Source: Candidatus Woesearchaeota archaeon
GTDB lineage: Archaea > Nanobdellota > Nanobdellia > Woesearchaeales > JACPJR01
DNA: 64,000 nt
Reading direction: 5' to 3'
Assembly (NCBI GenBank): GCA_016187565.1
Contig: JACPJR010000026.1
Span: 44,232-108,231 of the forward strand
Part shown: positions 16,650-64,000 of the stretch, piece after piece
How positions within the stretch are numbered: position 1 is the stretch's first letter
How the letters are laid out: every line of letters begins with the position of its first letter
Program-made: the position numbers and the translations under genes
Notes under the pieces: model-generated
What the model saw: only the letters and a program-made list of their open reading frames with translations
What the model was told of the DNA's origin: nothing
Database searches by the model: none

Positions 16650-16835
16650 TGTTGCACGTCGCGGCCTGCCTGTTGGTAGGATAGCCGCGTCAATAGCAGT
16701 GTGCTTCCTTGCGTGTGAACTGAGCGTATATACTTGTGGCGCTGACGAAGTGGGGGTTGGCCCCTCCGGGGTGCTTCGTAGGGTTGTGAACAACGTGAAC
16801 AATCCGTCAGCCGCCATCGACGTGGCGTGTCTTTT
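16650..16835. ncRNA. GC-rich putative structured ncRNA of unknown class
   Basis: ~185-nt GC-rich island in an AT-rich intergenic region between nog1 and gatE. The ends can pair (CACGTCGCGGC with GCCGC...GACGTG) and internal GGGG/CCCC hairpins are present. It lacks RNase P P4 motifs. There is a weak resemblance on the minus strand to SRP RNA helix 8 (AAGGAAGCAC). Confidence 0.3.
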
Positions 16836-43493: not shown

Positions 43494-43646
43494 GCGGGGA
43501 TGCCGGAGTGGCCAAACACGGTAAGCAACTTACCTGGGTCAGACGGGACAGGCTTAGGCATTTCAAGGTGTGATGAGCCTTAGGGCAATGAAATGAAGAC
43601 ACCTGTTGGCTTAGTGCCTTCGCAGGTTCGAATCCTGCTCCCCGCA
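43494..43646 (+). tRNA. Intron-containing class II tRNA, most likely tRNA-Leu(TAG)
   Basis: Acceptor GCGGGGA/TCCCCGC with discriminator A. T-arm GCAGG-TTCGAAT-CCTGC. Variable-arm hairpin GGC-TTAGT-GCC. Anticodon stem ACAGG (43548-52)/CCTGT (43602-06) with loop CT-TAG-G interrupted after position 37 by a 42-nt intron (43559-43600) that itself forms a CATTTCA/TGAAATG helix. An extra ~25 nt (43523-43547) between the D-arm and anticodon stem suggests a second non-canonical intron. No encoded CCA. Confidence 0.7.
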
Positions 43647-47116: not shown

Positions 47117-47443
47117 TTACCGCAACCCATGCAGTCGCTGAACTAACTCATCAAAAATGTTCTTTTTCTTTTCACTCGATAGAGAAAATAATACTTTTTC
47201 AATCATAGCAGTCGAAACAGTAAAGATGTAGTTTAATTTAATGACACTATCCTTGAGAGCTCCATCCTTTTTTGTCAACAGTATGCCTTTCATTTCAAGA
47301 TTGCTGGTGATACCAGCGACCACTACATTATCAAATTCGCTGAACAGCACTACGGCAGGTCTTTTTTTAATCTCAAACGTATCAGTAAACTGGACATGAG
47401 CGAGAACAATATCGCCTGGCTTAGGCATTTTCCCATGCCTCAT
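47117..47443 (-). CDS. MazF/PemK-family toxin
   Basis: PKPGDIVLAHVQF...KKRPAVVL matches the PemK/MazF N-terminal consensus; 108 aa. Overlaps the upstream antitoxin by 23 nt. Confidence 0.65.
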   Translation of the reverse strand: MRHGKMPKPGDIVLAHVQFTDTFEIKKRPAVVLFSEFDNVVVAGITSNLEMKGILLTKKDGALKDSVIKLNYIFTVSTAMIEKVLFSLSSEKKKNIFDELVQRLHGLR

Positions 47444-47645
47444 CTTCTTTGTTGTCCCACAGTTCTTTCATCTTAACTTGCTGAGTTTTATGGAGAAACT
47501 CATCATATTGGTTTCTTTTCTTTATATTCTTACATGTATGAATCATCTGCTTAATCAATTCATTATAGGTCTGTCGAGGATATTCTTTCACTTCCTTTAA
47601 TGATGCTACAACGGATTTCTCAAGTTGTATAGTTGTTGCGCTCAT
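47421..47645 (-). CDS. Putative antitoxin (RHH/MazE-like) of the MazF-like toxin
   Basis: 74 aa with N-terminal beta strand TTIQLEKSVVASL followed by helices; immediately upstream of, and overlapping, the toxin. Confidence 0.5.
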   Translation of the reverse strand: MSATTIQLEKSVVASLKEVKEYPRQTYNELIKQMIHTCKNIKKRNQYDEFLHKTQQVKMKELWDNKEDEAWENA

Positions 47646-47795
47646 TATACATCACCAATAGTAGGTATATAATCAGTTATATATAAACTTTGCTTTTCTG
47701 ATGAGTGGTTGTTTTTAAATGTGTAAACAGAATAGCAAATGGAACACCAGAATTGCCTGTCCGAAACGTTTATATAGAGAAGTAACATCAACTTC

Positions 47796-47996
47796 TTGGT
47801 GAAAGATATGACAAGGACAATAACGATAAATGAAGATATTTTTCAGGAAATGATACGGAAGAAAGAAGAATTCGATGTTATTGTGGAATCAATAGAACTT
47901 ATGAATGCTCCTGAGGTGCGAGAATCAATAAGAAGGAGCAAAGAAGATATCAACGCTGGAAGAATACACAAGCTAAAGGATGTTCTCAAAAAATGA
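47796..47996 (+). CDS. Phd/RelB-like antitoxin
   Basis: 66 aa, acidic; overlaps the downstream RelE-like gene by 4 nt (ATGA). Confidence 0.5.
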   Translation: MVKDMTRTITINEDIFQEMIRKKEEFDVIVESIELMNAPEVRESIRRSKEDINAGRIHKLKDVLKK

Positions 47997-48247
47997 GTTA
48001 TGAAGTTATATTAACCGACTCTTTCTTAAAGGATGTGAAAAAATTAAAGAATAAACCACTTGAAGAGCAGGTTCTCTACAAATTACAGGAACTTGAGGAG
48101 AGTCCAGAAAGAAACAAGAAACTACAATACGAATTGAAGGATTATTATAGAATAAGAGTAGGAAAACTTCGAATTCTTTACACCATTCAAGGCAATAGAG
48201 TTTATGTTGAAGTTCTCGTCAGAGGACATAAGTACGAAGAGGTATAG
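47993..48247 (+). CDS. RelE/ParE-family toxin
   Basis: C-terminal LKDYYRIRVGKLRILYTIQGNRVYVEVLVRGHKYEEV matches the RelE/ParE consensus. Confidence 0.7.
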   Translation: MSYEVILTDSFLKDVKKLKNKPLEEQVLYKLQELEESPERNKKLQYELKDYYRIRVGKLRILYTIQGNRVYVEVLVRGHKYEEV

Positions 48248-48300
48248 GGCGGGCAATAAACCTCACATGTGTTTTTAACTGCGTCTTTCGATCGTATAGC

Positions 48301-48588
48301 TCATTTGAAGATGTCAGAAACAGACTCTATTTTAATAGTCTTTTCTTTTTTAATCTTCGCAAGTTTCTTGATAAACGCTTCCTTGAGCGGTAATTCGTCA
48401 ACAGGATGCCAGTCTATGCTCTCACAAAACGTCCAGTCGTCATCAGAAACTTCTCCGGTTTGAAGGTACTTTTCAAAAATCAGCTTCTTTCTGGTTTCTT
48501 CTTTAGCGATCTCGCTCCAATTAACCCATTCGAAATGCTTTAGCTTTTCCTTAAATTCACTGCTTATTGATAATGTTACCGATGCCAC
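48301..48588 (-). CDS. Orphan VapB-like (SpoVT/AbrB or RHH-type) small protein, GTG start
   Basis: VTLSISSEFKEKLKHFEWVNWSEIAKEETRKKL is homologous to the VapB-like antitoxin at 62306-62533 (ITLAIPEDLHTRMREHSEIRWSEVVRKTITQKI); 95 aa. Confidence 0.4.
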   Translation of the reverse strand: MASVTLSISSEFKEKLKHFEWVNWSEIAKEETRKKLIFEKYLQTGEVSDDDWTFCESIDWHPVDELPLKEAFIKKLAKIKKEKTIKIESVSDIFK

Positions 48589-48589
48589 G

Positions 48590-48745
48590 TTAGAGCGCTC
48601 CTTTATTCTTCAATTCTTCAAACTTTAGCAATTCATGTATTCTAAGCTGGAATCTCTTTTTTAGATATTCAGCTAAGTTAATTTCAGGGAATTTATCAAT
48701 TTCTTCTTTCAATTCCTTAGGTATTGATACCGTAAAGGTAGCCAT
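48590..48745 (-). CDS. Small VapB-like paralog (51 aa)
   Basis: Manual translation MATFTVSIPKELKEEIDKFPEINLAEYLKKRFQLRIHELLKFEELKNKGAL; tandem paralog of the downstream gene; not in the ORF track. Confidence 0.35.
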   Translation of the reverse strand: MATFTVSIPKELKEEIDKFPEINLAEYLKKRFQLRIHELLKFEELKNKGAL

Positions 48746-48864
48746 AGTACGAGCACCCAACTTAGTTAATACACGAGAATTCGTTTGTCTATTTAAACTT
48801 TGCTTCTTTTGAGACGTTTATCTCTCACAAAACGTCCAGTCTTCATGAGAAATTTATTTTGTGG

Positions 48865-49758
48865 TCACTTGGCATATCTATAATACATTTTCAAATATCT
48901 CTTTACTAAAGATTGTACAAAAATATAGTCTTTGTTCTTCGTCTGGCTTCTCTCGAGAGCGTTATAATAACTGTTTCGGTTTGTATACTCAATGTTTAAC
49001 ATCGGATAGCTGTGCTTATGCAATACAAAATTCATCATTAATCTTGAAATTCTTCCATTACCATCGCTAAATGGATGGATAGTTACAAATTTCAAATGAA
49101 CCAACGAAGCCAAGACTACGGGGTTTAGTTTACTTTTATTTTTATGGTACCAGCTACAAAAATCATGGAGCAAAATATCAAGCTCTGCTGGGAATGGTAG
49201 TTCTACTTTGCTTCGAGCAATAGCTACTTGATGCTTTCTTATTACCCCTGCAATATCAGGCTTGGTGTCTTGTAAAAGTAGCTTGTGCCAATAAAGTACC
49301 GTAGACAGACTTAAATCTTTCTTAGAGTCTAGCATTTCATAGAAAACTTTCCTATGAGCTTCTGCTTCTTTCACATCCTCTAGAGGCTTATTTCTGGGCG
49401 TTATGTGTTGCTGTAACAAATCAGCCGTTTCTTTCAACGACAGTGTACTACCCTCTATTCTGTTGGTGTTATACGTAAATCTAATCATAAATGATTCAAT
49501 GTGCTGTTCTCTCGCAGAAGGGGGATAGGTAGAGAAATCCTCGCTAAATTTCTTCTGAATACTCTCAAGATTTTCGTTAAATTTCTCTAAGAATAGCTCG
49601 TGCATGAATTTTTCTTTAATTAATGCTGTATTCTTAGGCTCTTCAGAACCAAGATACTTTCTTTTGTTCCTAAATCTCTTACCTTCTCTGATGGTGTGTT
49701 CGAGATAATAATAAGTCTTACCTTTAACTGTTCTTATCCTCAGGTTCACCATAAACAC
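48865..49758 (-). CDS. Fic/DOC-family protein (putative AMPylase)
   Basis: Fic motif HPFSDGNGRISR; 297 aa. Confidence 0.8.
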   Translation of the reverse strand: MFMVNLRIRTVKGKTYYYLEHTIREGKRFRNKRKYLGSEEPKNTALIKEKFMHELFLEKFNENLESIQKKFSEDFSTYPPSAREQHIESFMIRFTYNTNRIEGSTLSLKETADLLQQHITPRNKPLEDVKEAEAHRKVFYEMLDSKKDLSLSTVLYWHKLLLQDTKPDIAGVIRKHQVAIARSKVELPFPAELDILLHDFCSWYHKNKSKLNPVVLASLVHLKFVTIHPFSDGNGRISRLMMNFVLHKHSYPMLNIEYTNRNSYYNALERSQTKNKDYIFVQSLVKRYLKMYYRYAK

Positions 49759-59380: not shown

Positions 59381-61011
59381 TGTTCAACCACCACCGAAAG
59401 CTCCTCACCTATCTTCGTATCAACGACCACTGAATAGTCAAGATAATCCTGCTTGCTCATGGTGAGGACACCATTTAAGCAGACAGGTAATTGTTTGGTT
59501 ATTCGTGCTTTTTCTTCATCGTCAAGAGAGGTCACTCCAACAAAGAGGCTGCGTGCGCCACAGGCATACATGACCTGAACACCGGGCAATGCCTGTTTTG
59601 TTTGCTTATCCCGTGTTTCAATGGTCACATTGCCACTCAATCGTTGATTCCGCTGGTCAAAGAGGGATTGTTCTCCTAACAAAGGCTCTCCTAGTTGATA
59701 GTCTGTAGTAAGTGCCCAGTTATCACGAATGTTTGTTTCTATGGCAAACTGGAAATGATATCCCTGTCCAGCAAATGCATCATCATCACGTAAGGTTACT
59801 AATACCGGGAAGCTCACATCATATGAAAACTCATACCGCTGGATAAATACTTGGAGAAGACCTTGTAAACTCTGCTGTGAGATCGTGCTTGCCGTGATAA
59901 GCTCACCTTCACGTGGCGTAATGTCAAAATAAACAGGCCACCCTAAATAAAAGAAATCAACGCTATAGGGATAGGGCTTTTCAAGAATCGTGATGACGAA
60001 CATATCGAGAACACCCTGTTGTTCATTCGTCAAGACCGCGTTATTTTCAACACGGTATCTTCGATAACCAGTCGTGTTCGGAATCTGGATGGCCTGGATA
60101 TAGTTGGGCAAAATGAGCTCTTCGATGACCTCTTGAACTTCAGTCTTTATCCAAGGTGCTCGTATGCCGCCAGGGCCAAAGGTTGTGGCAGCAAAGGGTG
60201 GCAGAGGTTTTTCCACACCAGAATACAATGCAATAAGGTTTAAGGTAACGTCCTCAATATATGCCCAGGCAATCTCCTCATTCACGATTTTTGTGGAAAG
60301 CTCGTACATTGCAAAGAGAGGAACATCGATAATACTAATGAATGCATCAAGATCATAGATTTTTTCTCCACGCTGTACGGTTAAGGGGTAGGAGATCTCG
60401 ACAACCACATCCTTCTGCGTCACTATGGTTAAGGGTTGGATATCTCCTGTTTCGGTAATCACCATGCCTTGTTGGGCAAATGGTTTAAAGTCATCAAGGC
60501 AAGCAGGTAGCTCTCGTTGTATCCACCGATCCAATTGTGCTTCCATGGACTTATCGTTTGACGTTCTCATTCCTTCTTGTTGCGTGCTTTTAAGCAAAGG
60601 TCTTCCGCGATCAGAAAACTGACAATCCTTGGTACAGTCATTCCTGCTTTTCAGGTACCACCAGTATGGTACACGTAAGGGACCAAAATCAATAAGCTCT
60701 GACTCTGTTGGTACAGAAGAATAGTGAAAGCTGCTGCCGCTTAAGGTTTCATCAGTAAGACTAATCCACCCTCCCTGCATACCCATAATCTTCAAGCCCT
60801 TCACCGTAACATCAGTAACACAGTTCTCCACATAATCCTGTATTGGTTGCACTTCGGGAGGAACCTTTACTTCTTCTCGTACGGGTGGTTTATATTCGCT
60901 GACTCTGGACTTAATAAAAAAGATAAGGAATGAGGAAAAAATCAAGAGGAGTCCAATAAGCAAAAAAACCGTTACCTGTGCTTTTCTTCCTCTTTTTTTA
61001 TTTGATGGCAT
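59377..61011 (-). CDS. Large pilin-like protein with class III-type signal peptide
   Basis: From the internal Met: MPSNKKRGRKAQ|VTVFLLIGLLLIFSSFLIFFI (charged, then A-Q, then hydrophobic helix). The ORF-track start at 61074 would overlap the upstream gene by 77 nt. ~544 aa extracellular domain. Confidence 0.5.
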   Translation of the reverse strand: MPSNKKRGRKAQVTVFLLIGLLLIFSSFLIFFIKSRVSEYKPPVREEVKVPPEVQPIQDYVENCVTDVTVKGLKIMGMQGGWISLTDETLSGSSFHYSSVPTESELIDFGPLRVPYWWYLKSRNDCTKDCQFSDRGRPLLKSTQQEGMRTSNDKSMEAQLDRWIQRELPACLDDFKPFAQQGMVITETGDIQPLTIVTQKDVVVEISYPLTVQRGEKIYDLDAFISIIDVPLFAMYELSTKIVNEEIAWAYIEDVTLNLIALYSGVEKPLPPFAATTFGPGGIRAPWIKTEVQEVIEELILPNYIQAIQIPNTTGYRRYRVENNAVLTNEQQGVLDMFVITILEKPYPYSVDFFYLGWPVYFDITPREGELITASTISQQSLQGLLQVFIQRYEFSYDVSFPVLVTLRDDDAFAGQGYHFQFAIETNIRDNWALTTDYQLGEPLLGEQSLFDQRNQRLSGNVTIETRDKQTKQALPGVQVMYACGARSLFVGVTSLDDEEKARITKQLPVCLNGVLTMSKQDYLDYSVVVDTKIGEELSVVVEQ

Positions 61012-61765
61012 TGTAGCAGGTAAATTTGTAAAACTCTGATTGAATTTCATTACAGGCTGTTTGTACGTTTTCATTATGACGGTGGATTAAGGCAACGGTT
61101 ACCAGGCATAGATCGTTCTGTTTTTCTCGTGTTAAGCATACTACCTTTGCTTCGGTAAAGTCAAAGCCTTCAAGTTCCTGAACGATTTGATCGATGTTTT
61201 TGGTGAGCGAGAGATAAAGGCCAATGGCTGAGCTCAGAAGGATTAACAACATGATACATCCTATGACAATGATACTGTGGGCAAAGAAAACATCCTTGCG
61301 TTCAGGAGAAAAATATGTTTTCTTAAGGAAATAGCTTCTCCTGTTGTGGACATACCAGAGCGTAAGTCCATTGAGAATGACGGTAACAAGCAATGCTCCA
61401 AGAATCAGTTGTTCCATAAAGCCAAAGATACTGAACTTTAAGAATGCTACTGAGATGAGTGAATTCAGGACGCTGAGGGAATAGAGAACAAAAGCCAAAT
61501 AATAGGACCATGATTTTTGTTCAGCAATACCATACACCAGCACGGCAATAATGACGGTCGTAAGAATATTGACGTCTCGTGCTGCATTGCCAATCAGCAT
61601 TTTGCCTGCAAGCATGGTGCTGGGCACGTAGATCGCTAAGAAGAGATAAAATACTCCAAGAATAAGAGAATAAATGATCAGCACTCGGACTGCATACGGC
61701 CTCTCTTTTTTAAAAGGCTGAGCTACTTTTTCAATCTGCCCCTTCCTCTCTTTTTTCATTCGCAA
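60998..61765 (-). CDS. Polytopic membrane protein (first gene of surface operon)
   Basis: 255 aa, ~7 TM helices, basic N-terminus. Confidence 0.55.
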   Translation of the reverse strand: MRMKKERKGQIEKVAQPFKKERPYAVRVLIIYSLILGVFYLFLAIYVPSTMLAGKMLIGNAARDVNILTTVIIAVLVYGIAEQKSWSYYLAFVLYSLSVLNSLISVAFLKFSIFGFMEQLILGALLVTVILNGLTLWYVHNRRSYFLKKTYFSPERKDVFFAHSIIVIGCIMLLILLSSAIGLYLSLTKNIDQIVQELEGFDFTEAKVVCLTREKQNDLCLVTVALIHRHNENVQTACNEIQSEFYKFTCYNAIK

Positions 61766-61807
61766 GGATTAAAAGAGAACTTCTTTATAAAGTTTTTCTT
61801 ATTTTTT

Positions 61808-61850
61808 CTCGTTGTTTTTGTTGAAAAATCAATTTTTTGGATCTCAAAAC
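61808..61850. repeat. Direct repeat copy A (promoter-like, upstream of surface operon)
   Basis: ctcgttgtttttgttgaaaaatcaattttttggatctcaaaac; near-identical to copy B at 62632-62675. Confidence 0.6.
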
Positions 61851-61871
61851 ATTAATGTGCCGCGTAGGTAA

Positions 61872-62309
61872 CTATTTGGTTTTTTCTTTTTCTTCAGGAA
61901 AAAACAGTTTTACAATATGCTTTGTCTTAAAAACTCTAACTTTATTCTGTTTTTCAAGATGAGGGTCATCTGACCACATCTTAGAATTTTCAATGCCAAA
62001 AGCAGTTGCCAAGAAAACAACATCATCAGGATCAATTTTTCCAAGAAGTTTATCAACTTCTTCTATTTTAAGCTTAATCTGCTCTTCTGGGACTAAAGTA
62101 ATATGCTTTAGTAAATGATTTAACAATTCTGTATATTCTTCTTCATTCATTCCAGATTTTTCTAGAACTAAATCTTTATACTTCCTTATCTCGTGGAAAG
62201 AAGATTCTGGATAGAAAAAGTCCCAGCCAGACTCAACAATAATCTTTCTTACAGTAGAATCCCTAATAAGACTAGCAAGAAGGATATTAGAGTCAATGAC
62301 AAGAATCAT
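61872..62309 (-). CDS. vapC: PIN-domain toxin VapC
   Basis: MILVIDSNILLA N-terminal PIN motif and DDVVFLATAF C-terminal motif; 145 aa; overlaps vapB by 4 nt. Confidence 0.65.
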   Translation of the reverse strand: MILVIDSNILLASLIRDSTVRKIIVESGWDFFYPESSFHEIRKYKDLVLEKSGMNEEEYTELLNHLLKHITLVPEEQIKLKIEEVDKLLGKIDPDDVVFLATAFGIENSKMWSDDPHLEKQNKVRVFKTKHIVKLFFPEEKEKTK

Positions 62310-62533
62310 CTTCTTAGACCGAGTTTTCTTGCAACTGCACTATCTACTTTATTAGCAATTTCATCTACATCTTTTTGTGTTAATTTACTCTTAGCAGTTA
62401 GTTTGTCCATAACATCTAAATCTTCTATCTTCTGGGTTATAGTTTTTCTAACTACTTCACTCCACCTAATCTCAGAGTGTTCTCTCATTCTTGTGTGTAA
62501 ATCTTCCGGTATTGCTAATGTTATATTTGGCAT
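62306..62533 (-). CDS. vapB: VapB-like antitoxin
   Basis: 75 aa, ITLAIPEDLHTRMREH beta-strand/helix N-terminus; upstream of, and overlapping, vapC. Confidence 0.55.
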   Translation of the reverse strand: MPNITLAIPEDLHTRMREHSEIRWSEVVRKTITQKIEDLDVMDKLTAKSKLTQKDVDEIANKVDSAVARKLGLRR

Positions 62534-62631
62534 GTTTTATCACCTTATGTGGATAGATGTGATTACACATATATAAACCTTTCGCTAAGTTTTCGTAAAA
62601 ACGTCCTTTCGTCAGTTAGGAAACCCCCGTT

Positions 62632-62675
62632 CTCGTTGTTTTTGTTTAAAAATCAATTTTTGGGATCTCAAAAAA
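62632..62675. repeat. Direct repeat copy B (promoter-like, upstream of vapBC)
   Basis: ctcgttgtttttgtttaaaaatcaatttttgggatctcaaaaaac. Confidence 0.6.
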
Positions 62676-62759
62676 CGTATGCGGATCGCGGTTATGCTCC
62701 TCCGTTAGGGCAGAGTTCGAGTTTTGGCGTATCGAGGACGAAGAGTCATTCCTTGCTGC

Positions 62760-63020
62760 CTATTTAGACCTAAAATAATAAAGATACAACATAAATACAG
62801 AAGTTAATATATTTAGTGTAAATAGAATATTATTATAGAAATCTCTAACCTCAATGATATTATATATCAACATGAATCCATTTCCAATTACCCAACACCA
62901 AATCATTAAAGCACTTAAACCTTTTCGGGTTTTTGTCTTAACCTGAGTGTAGATTTGTGGTAATACAGAAAAAATTATAAGAATATTTCCCAAAATTGCT
63001 ACAACAGAGAGCATTGTCAT
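62760..63020 (-). CDS. Small hydrophobic membrane protein (weak)
   Basis: 86 aa, three predicted TM helices, very AT-rich. Confidence 0.3.
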   Translation of the reverse strand: MTMLSVVAILGNILIIFSVLPQIYTQVKTKTRKGLSALMIWCWVIGNGFMLIYNIIEVRDFYNNILFTLNILTSVFMLYLYYFRSK

Positions 63021-63358
63021 AATACCTAACTTACTGAATAGTTAATAAATTTTTCGTTAAGCGGGCAAGGAATTATTGAACATAACACATACGCCCGGTG
63101 TTATGCTCTCCGTCGGTTACGAAGTCCCAACGGATTTCGACCGAAAAGTAATTTTGAGAGGCGTTCTATCAACGGAGCGAACAGCGACTTTCAAGAACAA
63201 GAAGTAACGGGGACAATTTTAATTCATCCAAGGCAAAGCCTCTTCAAGTTAATCTATTTTAGGGGAGAGTTCTGTTTCTACAAAATTTCATCGGAATATT
63301 TATATAGGAATTATGCCTTGGCTTATGATATATCACAGTTTACGGGGGAGTTTCGCTA

Positions 63359-63586
63359 ATGATTAATACAAAACAAAAGATACTAGAATTTCTAAAAAAG
63401 GCAGATTGGCCTTCAACAACAGAAGACATAGCAGCAGAAGTTAAAGTATCTTGGAATACAGCACAAGTGCATCTTCTAAAAATGGTTCACGAAGGAATTC
63501 TAAAATATAAGAAAGTCGGAAGACAAAATCAGTTCTGGCTTAATGAAAGTTATGAGAAATACTTTAAGATAGTGGATAAAAAATGA
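63359..63586 (+). CDS. Small winged-helix DNA-binding protein
   Basis: 75 aa; ILEFLKKADWPSTTEDIAAEVKVSWNTAQVHLLKMVHEGILKYKKVGR is a wHTH fold. Confidence 0.5.
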   Translation: MINTKQKILEFLKKADWPSTTEDIAAEVKVSWNTAQVHLLKMVHEGILKYKKVGRQNQFWLNESYEKYFKIVDKK

Positions 63587-63912
63587 TAAAGGAATACAAA
63601 CAATTAAGTTTAGTCAAACCACGAACTGGAATTATAGCAAAAATTTGTGGAATATTCTTAATTTTATTAGGTTTTATAATATTTCTAACAGGAGTAATAG
63701 CCATAATAACTATTATAGGTATATTTTACACATTTGGCGCAGCACTAATAGCTTATGCCTTAGGGTTACTTGGTCTTAGTCTTTTTTTTGGATTAGTTAA
63801 GGCAGAATGTCCTTATTGTGGAGCAAAATTAAAAATTTTGCCATTTCGCCATTCGCTTAGATGTATTAGGTGCTTTAATTTAATATTGCTTAAATGGAAA
63901 GATGAAAAATGA
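63583..63912 (+). CDS. Small membrane protein with C-terminal zinc ribbon
   Basis: Two TM helices then CPYCGAKL...CIRCFNL; overlaps the upstream gene by 4 nt. Confidence 0.4.
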   Translation: MIKEYKQLSLVKPRTGIIAKICGIFLILLGFIIFLTGVIAIITIIGIFYTFGAALIAYALGLLGLSLFFGLVKAECPYCGAKLKILPFRHSLRCIRCFNLILLKWKDEK

Positions 63913-64000
63913 TTGAATCAAAGAAATTTAAACAGATTGATATAGAATTTTCTGAATTTTGTAAAGGCGTTAATAATAAAAATGAGTATCAGCAAGAAAT

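Follow-up and report, generated by a model that had tools for sequence, protein, structure and literature searches.

The pdif modules of Acinetobacter plasmids are small toxin–antitoxin or single-gene units that lie between inverted copies of a short recombination site, a 28-bp sequence in which XerC and XerD sites are arranged 11-6-11. These modules are Xer-dependent, leave no target duplication and carry no recombinase of their own. The attC sites of integrons measure 57–141 nt. Archaeal integrons and clusters of attC sites lacking integron integrases (CALINs) have been reported from Nanoarchaeota, the GTDB phylum in which the same study places the DPANN group; most of them lack an integrase on their contig, and toxin–antitoxin cassettes abound in them (Ghaly et al. 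2022, PMC9668308). Here, we describe the last 2.2 kb of a 64 000-nt stretch of a Candidatus Woesearchaeota contig (the whole stretch is called the window), in which a previously undescribed GC-rich element of ~75 nt, designated E, travels with a small gene for a PQ-loop/SemiSWEET-like membrane protein. We take the lineage of the window to fall in Nanoarchaeota. The islet of small genes around E is itself ordinary; what is new is the flanking element only.

Two GC-rich segments, S1 and S2, stand out from the AT-rich end of the window, as a preliminary description of this DNA had pointed out. The 60 nt from position 62681 (S1) are 58% GC, against 31% in the flanks, which is the largest local contrast in the 64 kb, and the 60 nt from position 63086 (S2) are 55% GC, against 32%, the third-largest contrast. 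S2 as first drawn (63061–63240) averages ~46% GC, and its informative part is 63061–63162. Read on the strand of the PQ-loop gene, S1 is a copy of E (E1) that begins right after the stop codon with a B' box, GCAGCAAGGAATGA, and continues with CTCTTCG, a 33-nt variable segment, CGGAGGAG and an A' box, CATAACC. The architecture across copies is a B' box, CTCTTCG, a variable segment of 28–33 nt, CGGAG(A/G)G, which is complementary to CTCTTCG, and an A' box of the form YWTAAC(A)C.

The same element is found directly 3' of the PQ-loop stop codon in two other contigs (L016 and L030) and, in part, in a third (L015), with different neighbouring genes in each case. The PQ-loop proteins of L015, L016 and L030 show 84–88% amino-acid identity, and the L015 gene ~85% identity at the DNA level. 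The post-stop sequence, GC(N)GCAAGGAATGACTCTTCG, is 97–100% identical across the four loci over the first 14–29 nt, as compared with ~85% for the ORFs (open reading frames), and is followed by the GC-rich stretch. A covariance model trained on L016 and L030 only (R2) matched S1 (62682–62759, minus strand) and nothing else in the 64-kb window, with 20 bits and an E-value of 0.005, and L015, outside the training set, was matched over the 5' half of E with an E-value of 6.6e-5; the E-values of these custom models are rough. Our sample of E comprises four copies, and two of the loci carry both of the inverted arms described below. S1 thus flanks the PQ-loop genes of this lineage on their 3' side and does not mark a boundary of the islet.

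The end boxes of E recur in inverted orientation upstream of the PQ-loop gene, so that a split inverted repeat of ~24 nt, interrupted on its 3' side by a hairpin-like insert, encloses both promoter and ORF. On the gene strand, the upstream arms (63061–63093) read CGTATG-GTGTTATGTTC-AA-TAATTCCTTGCC, which is the reverse complement of the E1 end boxes without the middle. The B box occurs twice in the 64 kb, as an inverted pair around the PQ-loop gene, and two of the inverted pairs identified (I13 and I15) include upstream-arm boxes. A leave-one-out covariance model from which S2 was omitted in training (R3) matched 63063–63094 on the plus strand with 11.5 bits, and the compact arm at the equivalent site of L016 (476–498, minus strand) gave an E-value of 0.07. 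Within each locus (the window and L016), 23 of the 24 positions in the three arm blocks agree, versus 19 of 24 between the loci, and the four between-locus differences occur in both arms, i.e. the arms co-vary. When the inverted repeat was tested by gapped alignment with lenient gap costs, the result was not significant; exact-word rarity, the model matches and the agreement between arms support the repeat. A TATA-like box, TTTATTAA, lies 20 nt before the PQ-loop ATG and is kept in L016, L030 and a further contig, L014. Since this predicted TATA box lies inside the arms, the upstream arms would fall outside the PQ-loop transcript.

S1 and S2 are separated by ~330 nt, and the PQ-loop gene, of 261 nt, is the only gene between them. 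We hold, with moderate confidence, that S2 contains a degenerate orphan copy of the element (E2), which on the minus strand (63162–63091) presents GCCTCTCAAAATTA, CTTTTCG, a 29-nt hairpin, CGGAGAG and CATAACAC in the order and spacing of E. Under R3, E2 was the best non-training match in the window (11.7 bits; E-value 0.57 for the 128 kb searched), and the E-value was ~0.002 if S2 alone is taken as the search space and 0.18 in 20 kb with filters off. The local alignment of S1 and S2, ACGGA(G)GAGCATAAC, was beaten by only 0.6% of shuffles. L016, an unrelated contig, has the same core 3' of its own PQ-loop gene (p 0.006), and its pairwise match to S2 likewise exceeded 99.4% of shuffles. The related core that had been noticed in both segments (gttatgctc-tccgt) corresponds to the A' box together with the 3' half of the E stem; the relationship is real but modest, and the S1/S2 match was not among the blastn-short results at E<10. 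A closing stem drawn earlier in S2 (CTCCGT, 63109–63114, with ACGGAG, 63171–63176) can be read in the sequence but is not backed by comparison among copies. The one stem common to all copies is formed in S2 by CTCTCCG (63106–63112) and CGAAAAG (63142–63148), with seven of seven core pairs kept, two of them by G–U. One side of an 11-9-11 hairpin is the A' box of E2, the other the A box belonging to the upstream arm.

Further repeats accompany the foreign copies of E. In L016 (875–960), downstream of the element, a 10-bp stem, GGGCTATACG/CGTATAGCCC, encloses a small hairpin, and a perfect palindrome with 18-nt arms, ACGTTATGCAAAATGCGC-C-GCGCATTTTGCATAACGT, reuses the GTTATGC/GCATAAC word; shuffles of this tract fold far less well (z = -2.9 and -3.9). 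In L030, the PQ-loop gene is followed by 360 nt of non-coding DNA with two copies of a direct repeat of ~45 nt (347–400 and 549–590), which reads TATAACA..TTAAC(C)GGTTCG..C(A)CCAAAAT. The motif TAACG-TTCGC-CCCAAA of L030 also occurs in L015 and L016, and in a weaker form in S2.

We favour, at a confidence that stops a little short of even, the reading that the last 2.2 kb are the start of a strain-variable, horizontally acquired mosaic islet of separate small modules. A repeat-flanked toxin–antitoxin pair, the PQ-loop module in its split inverted repeat and a winged helix-turn-helix (wHTH) operon fit this description. S1 and the core of S2 would be two same-strand copies of E, with E forming the 3' end of a portable PQ-loop module. 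On the sense strand, such a module would consist of CGTATG, the A box and the B box, then the TATA box and the 86-codon ORF, followed by a 3' part made up of the B' box, a short stem enclosing the variable segment of ~30 nt, the A' box and CATACG. The likeliest mechanism, which we propose only tentatively, is that the boxes serve as cis-acting DNA module ends used by a recombinase or transposase in trans. E2 might then be what is left of an adjacent module, and a similar, independent insertion might have left the 44-nt repeats that flank the toxin–antitoxin pair as its scar. Table 1 lists the features of the region.

Table 1. Features at the AT-rich end of the window (positions are those of the 64 000-nt stretch)
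Feature	Position	Strand	Basis or remarks
44-nt direct repeat, copy A	61806..61849	.	2 copies in 64 kb, 0 expected
PIN-domain toxin gene, 145 aa	61872..62309	-	PF10130 PIN_2, E 7.7e-23, 81.6 bits
Ribbon-helix-helix antitoxin gene, 75 aa	62306..62533	-	PF26688 RHH_12; 4-nt overlap with the PIN gene
44-nt direct repeat, copy B	62630..62673	.	2 mismatches versus copy A
Outer arm CGTATG, downstream side of the PQ-loop module	62676..62681	+	Read from sequence; partner 63088-63093, minus strand
Element E1 (= S1)	62683..62759	-	Model R2 match; alignments with foreign copies
PQ-loop/SemiSWEET-like membrane protein gene, 86 aa	62760..63020	-	PF04193, E 3.5e-11, 43 bits; 26.8% GC
Predicted TATA box of the PQ-loop gene, TTTATTAA	63041..63048	-	Inferred from sequence and alignments
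Compact upstream arms	63061..63093	-	CGTATG 63093-63088; A box GTGTTATGTTC 63088-63078; B box TAATTCCTTGCCCGC 63075-63061
11-9-11 hairpin/palindrome, GAACATAACAC-ATACGCCCG-GTGTTATGCTC	63078..63108	.	I13, 91% complementary
Element E2, putative diverged orphan copy (core of S2)	63091..63162	-	Leave-one-out model R3
Predicted TATA box of the wHTH operon, TTTATATA	63299..63306	+	Inferred from sequence
Winged helix-turn-helix protein gene, 75 aa	63359..63586	+	FaeA-like PF04703, 22.9 bits (cut-off 20.7)
Membrane protein gene with C-terminal CxxC...CxxC zinc ribbon, 109 aa	63583..63912	+	phrog_10121, E 5.8e-10
228-aa gene, start only in the window	63909..64000	+	Full reading in L001 10327-11013

The window belongs to a metagenome-assembled genome. 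GatE, fumarase and Na+/H+ antiporters are among the proteins it encodes, which places it on a cellular archaeal chromosome, and the 86-, 255- and 109-aa proteins are 100% identical to NCBI Candidatus Woesearchaeota entries on a contig of 129.5 kb (locus tags HYW21_07245 to HYW21_07270, 60998–63912). To the left of the islet lies a co-oriented cluster of conserved large surface-protein genes (343, 302, 313, 1174, 292, 565 and 255 aa), in which no Pfam domains were found except an Ig-like domain in the 343-aa protein. The islet begins with a run of six low-GC genes that extends from ~61806 to past the window end. These six genes (five in 61872–63912 and the 228-aa gene) have 26.8–33.3% GC and 16–25% GC at third codon positions, as compared with 41.6±2.8% and 37.8±5.7%, respectively, in the 45 ORFs left of the islet, and the AT-richness ascribed to this region was therefore confirmed. 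The small genes were also correctly described: the 86-aa membrane protein is the PQ-loop protein, the 75-aa protein is a wHTH protein and the 109-aa protein has two to three transmembrane helices and a CPYC...CIRC motif. The wHTH protein also reached 28.2 bits against DUF7342, under the cut-off of 31.6. The 109-aa protein matched only itself among 5.8 billion proteins, and the 228-aa protein had no match in Pfam, PHROG, PADLOC or NCBIfam.

One relative, contig L023, was found for the comparison of synteny. Its 253-aa protein is 79% identical to the 255-aa protein of the window, and seven cluster genes follow in the same order. The DNA is near-identical through the promoter of the 255-aa gene, and all similarity ends at ~61809, a point that coincides with the inner edge of 44-nt repeat copy A and the start of the AT-rich stretch. 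L023 lacks the islet beside the conserved cluster but has other foreign DNA: an IS200-like Y1 transposase (TnpA) followed by a GC-rich hairpin, GCCGCCGACC-TAT-GGTCGGCGG, occupies the position of the islet (L023 1–440), and the contig stops after 665 nt. The loss of similarity and the transposase found in its place indicate that the region is variable, and the boundary is thus a hot spot for foreign DNA in this lineage. Identical synteny in relatives, which the preliminary description had named as an argument against an inserted island, was thus not what this comparison returned.

Identical contigs from several runs of one project reach 690–736 nt past position 64000. The extension adds the 228-aa gene and the first 20–36 residues of a further gene beginning MEEPAKDKALVVFQSKKIRRTWFKDEWHYS. 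Neither the islet genes (61872–64000) nor the 690–736 nt beyond yielded an integrase, a rep or capsid gene or any other viral hallmark; the earlier statement that no integrase precedes the window end stands, and reading onwards for an integrase or rep gene, as had been advised, yielded none over this distance. The N-terminus of the MEEPAKDKALVVFQSKKIRRTWFKDEWHYS gene product (30–36 residues) had no Pfam match, and we do not claim a resemblance to Bro-N/KilA-N. Every contig from six runs (L001 11047–11136 and the ends of L002–L005 and L024) stops inside this gene, which suggests multi-copy or strain-variable sequence.

The first module of the islet has the make-up of a type II (VapBC-like) toxin–antitoxin system, a PIN toxin with an overlapping small antitoxin gene upstream. 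The ribbon-helix-helix antitoxin also matched the VapB-like family NF050799, under its cut-off (E-value 4.5e-6). The 44-nt direct repeats bracket an 824-nt unit that includes a 97-nt leader and a 22-nt trailer; they occur at only these two places in the window, show no extension on either side and enclose the toxin–antitoxin pair only, not the islet. Each copy begins with a T-run just past the preceding gene and contains a near-palindrome, TTTTGRGATCYCAAAA, around GATC. A crossover between the copies would be predicted to release an 824-nt circle.

PQ-loop homologues are common in Woesearchaeota. We found 17, with 57–100% identity and all named Candidatus Woesearchaeota by NCBI. Homologues with 57–88% identity lie beside unrelated and often housekeeping genes: a HepT toxin gene in L016, peptidase A24 in L014, eRF1 and TruD in L009 and, in L015, a GreA-like gene and one for an aminoacyl-tRNA synthetase (tRNA-synt_2). 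The PQ-loop gene of L014 (2050–2310) is 28% GC within a contig of 50% GC, and this composition suggests a recent transfer. In L017 (1–100), the gene adjoins an apparent reverse complement of a tRNA 5' half, GGGCCCGTAGCTCAGCTTGGTAGAGG. A scan of public DNA with a PQ-loop profile gave only 5 distant loci, all without E, and no useful relatives came from scans of genome contigs with the 565-aa protein and the 44-nt repeat or of metagenome contigs with the E 5' motif. We also considered a conserved pairing of a regulator with its operator, which was not supported because the 80-aa gene that follows the PQ-loop gene in L016 is not related to the 75-aa wHTH gene of the window.

A number of observations weigh against the reading of E and the inverted boxes as ends of a portable module. 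No recombinase, transposase or integrase is present in the islet or in the 690–736 nt beyond the window; more widely, no recombinase and no Y1 transposase was found among those ORFs of the window that were scanned (~25 of the 47 with 150 aa or more, together with the small genes of the islet). Both arms occur in two loci only, the window and L016: L015 is without an upstream arm, the L030 contig is too short for the upstream arm to be read, and the closer-packed orthologues in L009, L017 and L029 are without arms. Direct reading of the sequence flanking the inverted repeat revealed no target-site duplication. No further copies of E were found in the 64 kb or in 16 other loci, so that nothing points to a repeat family or to repeated mobility. 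E2 has marginal support, at 7.1 bits with R2 and an E-value of 0.57 for the whole window with R3, and the exact PIN protein was found in this single context only (9 contigs). The upstream arms sit at the position of an archaeal transcription-factor site and could be an operator. Finally, none of the pairs of the shared stem has changed on both sides in the four sequences, a comparison of low power, and the stem is part of the minimum-energy fold in two of the four copies, being absent in E1 and L030.

Of the systems described to date, integron cassettes offer the closest analogy. As in integrons, the units are small and mostly single-gene, and each is followed by an imperfect palindrome with end boxes and a variable middle; toxin–antitoxin cassettes are adjacent, and the units are found in differing genomic contexts. 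The A boxes of L016 (GTTAAAC/GTTTAAC) fit the R-box consensus GTTRRRY/RYYYAAC, and the GTTATGC of the window is one base off. However, direct reading of E1, E2, L016 and L030 for attC architecture failed on polarity, boxes and length. E has an RYYYAAC-like box at its 3' end (sense strand) without GTTRRRY at the other, its outer boxes, GGCAAGGAATGA, have no attC counterpart, and no L boxes or extrahelical bases were recognised. The only RYYYAAC...GTTRRRY palindrome at this locus is the 31-nt I13, which is below the attC range. In addition, the PQ-loop module has its own promoter, the array is not co-oriented, and no IntI, marked by its integron-specific insertion, was found among the ORFs scanned, and neither was the alternative hallmark, a set of at least two attC sites within 4 kb.

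The pdif modules share with this locus the small modules in varied contexts, the inverted site copies and the lack of target duplication and of a recombinase of their own, whereas the full palindrome here is 11-9-11 and present on one side only, with a half-site on the other. Miniature inverted-repeat or palindrome-associated transposable elements (MITEs or PATEs) that depend on IS200/IS605 likewise have short GC-rich end hairpins, no transposase and no target duplication. The relative L023 has an IS200-like TnpA and a GC-rich hairpin at the equivalent boundary, and the wobble pairs of E favour one strand, as with the single-strand-specific HUH transposases (IS200/IS605-type, TnpA). In contrast, no TnpA or TnpB was seen among the window ORFs scanned, the interior of E is a variable ~30 nt and not a tight imperfect palindrome, both ends are found in L016 and the window only, and two copies of E in 64 kb are not a multi-copy family. 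Toxin–antitoxin-rich islets of archaeal and bacterial chromosomes match the low-GC small genes, the PIN/ribbon-helix-helix pair, the small regulator and the loss of synteny, and a second islet (PemK, ParE and Fic) lies at 47.1–49.8 kb; this class describes a setting without a mechanism, and leaves E and the inverted arms unaccounted for.

The structural data bear most directly on an alternative that ranks close behind in likelihood, though we consider it less likely than not, namely that E acts within the PQ-loop mRNA, as a structured 3' untranslated region or as a terminator-associated hairpin, and sets its 3' end or stabilises it; E2 would then be a relic or an independently made small RNA. 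E is always directly 3' of the stop codon and in sense orientation, and S1 and S2 are sharp GC peaks in AT-rich surroundings, as expected of structured RNA. The shared stem CTCTTCG/CGGAGAG (7–8 bp) is paired in 87.5% of cells, clearly above slid controls, and three one-sided changes stay paired by G–U on the sense strand only, being A–C mismatches on the other strand. TTTTTT, the signal at which transcription in archaea usually terminates, comes after E1, but a T-run follows E in the window only. Neither S1 nor S2 belongs to an Rfam family: Rfam 15 gave no match in the window at gathering thresholds, and the covariance search of both segments that had been recommended returned nothing over them at E<=10. 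S1 and L015 fold no better than shuffles on both strands. The whole-segment z-scores were +0.38 and +0.99 for S1 and -1.62 and -0.93 for S2, those for the element only were +0.07 (E1) and -1.88 (E2), and L016 alone, which has an extra 10-bp stem, folds better than shuffles. With the absence of compensatory double changes and of the stem from the minimum-energy folds of E1 and L030, these results did not uphold the earlier suggestion of small RNAs. An RNA would, moreover, leave the inverted arms unexplained, as these precede the predicted TATA box and would stay out of the transcript.

Two coding explanations were rejected. A stop-free frame of 105 codons (63042–63356, plus strand) crosses S2 and closes with TAATG, which overlaps the start codon of the wHTH gene. 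Only close to its end does it offer an ATG, GTG or TTG start, and the chance of a run of this length at the local base composition is ~0.1% per frame. It gave one marginal, repetitive match among 1.84 billion representatives (E 5e-5), and with no start codon and no Pfam match it was rejected as a recognisable pseudogene in S2. A small ORF opposite E was rejected as conservation tracks the DNA and not the reading frame.

It is improbable, in our assessment, that S1 and S2 are neutral, i.e. the decaying leftovers of duplications and indels flanking a recently transferred PQ-loop gene, with the arms an old inverted duplication held similar by gene conversion. The variable segments of L015, L016 and L030 do align with indels and internal duplications, short motifs (CTTCG and CGCCCAAA) recur in shuffled order, E2 is degenerate, and structure has no energetic or covariation support. 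On the other hand, neutral decay is hard to reconcile with the near-identity of the first 14–29 nt past the stop codon in four loci whose ORFs have diverged further, with end boxes that are kept while the interior is scrambled, with arms that co-vary at four positions between loci, or with GC-rich sequence maintained amid very AT-rich intergenic DNA.

Least probable of all is the original proposal that the whole AT-rich stretch is one plasmid- or virus-derived element with S1 and S2 as att-like repeats or small RNAs: foreign composition and the loss of synteny at the boundary with L023 hold good, a toxin–antitoxin pair, a wHTH gene and a membrane zinc-ribbon protein (phrog_10121) are typical of small mobile elements, and the stop of all contigs at one gene 0.7 kb past the window suggests repeated or variable DNA, but the region, read as far as those 690–736 nt, looks like a mosaic of modules rather than a single element, S1 and S2 do not behave as att sites and bracket a single cellular-type gene, S1 accompanies the PQ-loop gene in genomes without the rest of the islet (E follows the orthologous gene in three other contigs, with different neighbours), no hallmark gene was met and no tRNA-like target lies at the boundary. 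The expected att repeats bounding a whole element were not seen, as S1/S2 and the 44-nt repeats each bracket single modules. IMG/VR, searched with the 109-aa, 228-aa and PQ-loop proteins, contained no relatives, and nineteen 16-mer matches there were at chance level and all failed the E model; no relatives of the islet were found among INPHARED phages or PLSDB plasmids.

Neither ARAGORN nor direct reading found a tRNA-like sequence at 61806 or in S1/S2, and tRNA or split-tRNA fragments were rejected as an explanation of the two segments, given that ARAGORN reported none and that no T-arm or acceptor pattern is present. Elsewhere in the window (43494–43646, plus strand), a tRNA gene of ~153 nt has a long intervening sequence, a perfect 7-bp acceptor stem (GCGGGGA/TCCCCGC), a type-II-like D arm, GCCGGAGTGGCCAAAC, and a T arm of GCAGG-TTCGAAT-CCTGC. 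This gene was missed by ARAGORN and by the Rfam tRNA model. ARAGORN is therefore unreliable in this genome, and both tools miss its intron-rich tRNAs.

Two further regions of the window deserve mention. The second AT-rich toxin–antitoxin islet (47117–49758; 35–36% GC) lies within the surface-protein region and encodes PemK/MazF and ParE/RelE toxins of 108 and 84 aa, with partners of 74 and 66 aa, respectively, as well as a 95-aa ORF and a Fic/DOC protein of 297 aa; it also contains a 34-nt direct repeat, 91% identical, with copies at 48419–48452 and 48822–48855. Upstream of gatE, an intergenic island of 65% GC (16690–16830, plus strand shown) has long complementary ends, GGCGCTGACG ... CGTCAGCCGCC, and the fourth-highest local GC contrast in the window. 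It has no Rfam match at E<=1 and may be a structured RNA, either undescribed or divergent.

The genomes of DPANN archaea are tiny, and their gene exchange is poorly understood. Taken furthest, E and the inverted A and B boxes might be the recombination site of an undescribed DPANN gene-cassette system, a possibility we regard as a long shot. Small promoter-bearing genes, such as those for the PQ-loop transporter and toxin–antitoxin pairs, would be bounded by foldable split inverted repeats, and a host- or helper-encoded recombinase would shuffle the units between genomes in a manner like that of integrons and pdif modules, to which the system would be unrelated. If E is instead an RNA hairpin at the 3' end of the PQ-loop message, it would be a minor, lineage-specific regulatory feature. 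As a transporter gene that carries the same flanks in different Woesearchaeota, the PQ-loop module is a candidate for cassette-like gene movement.

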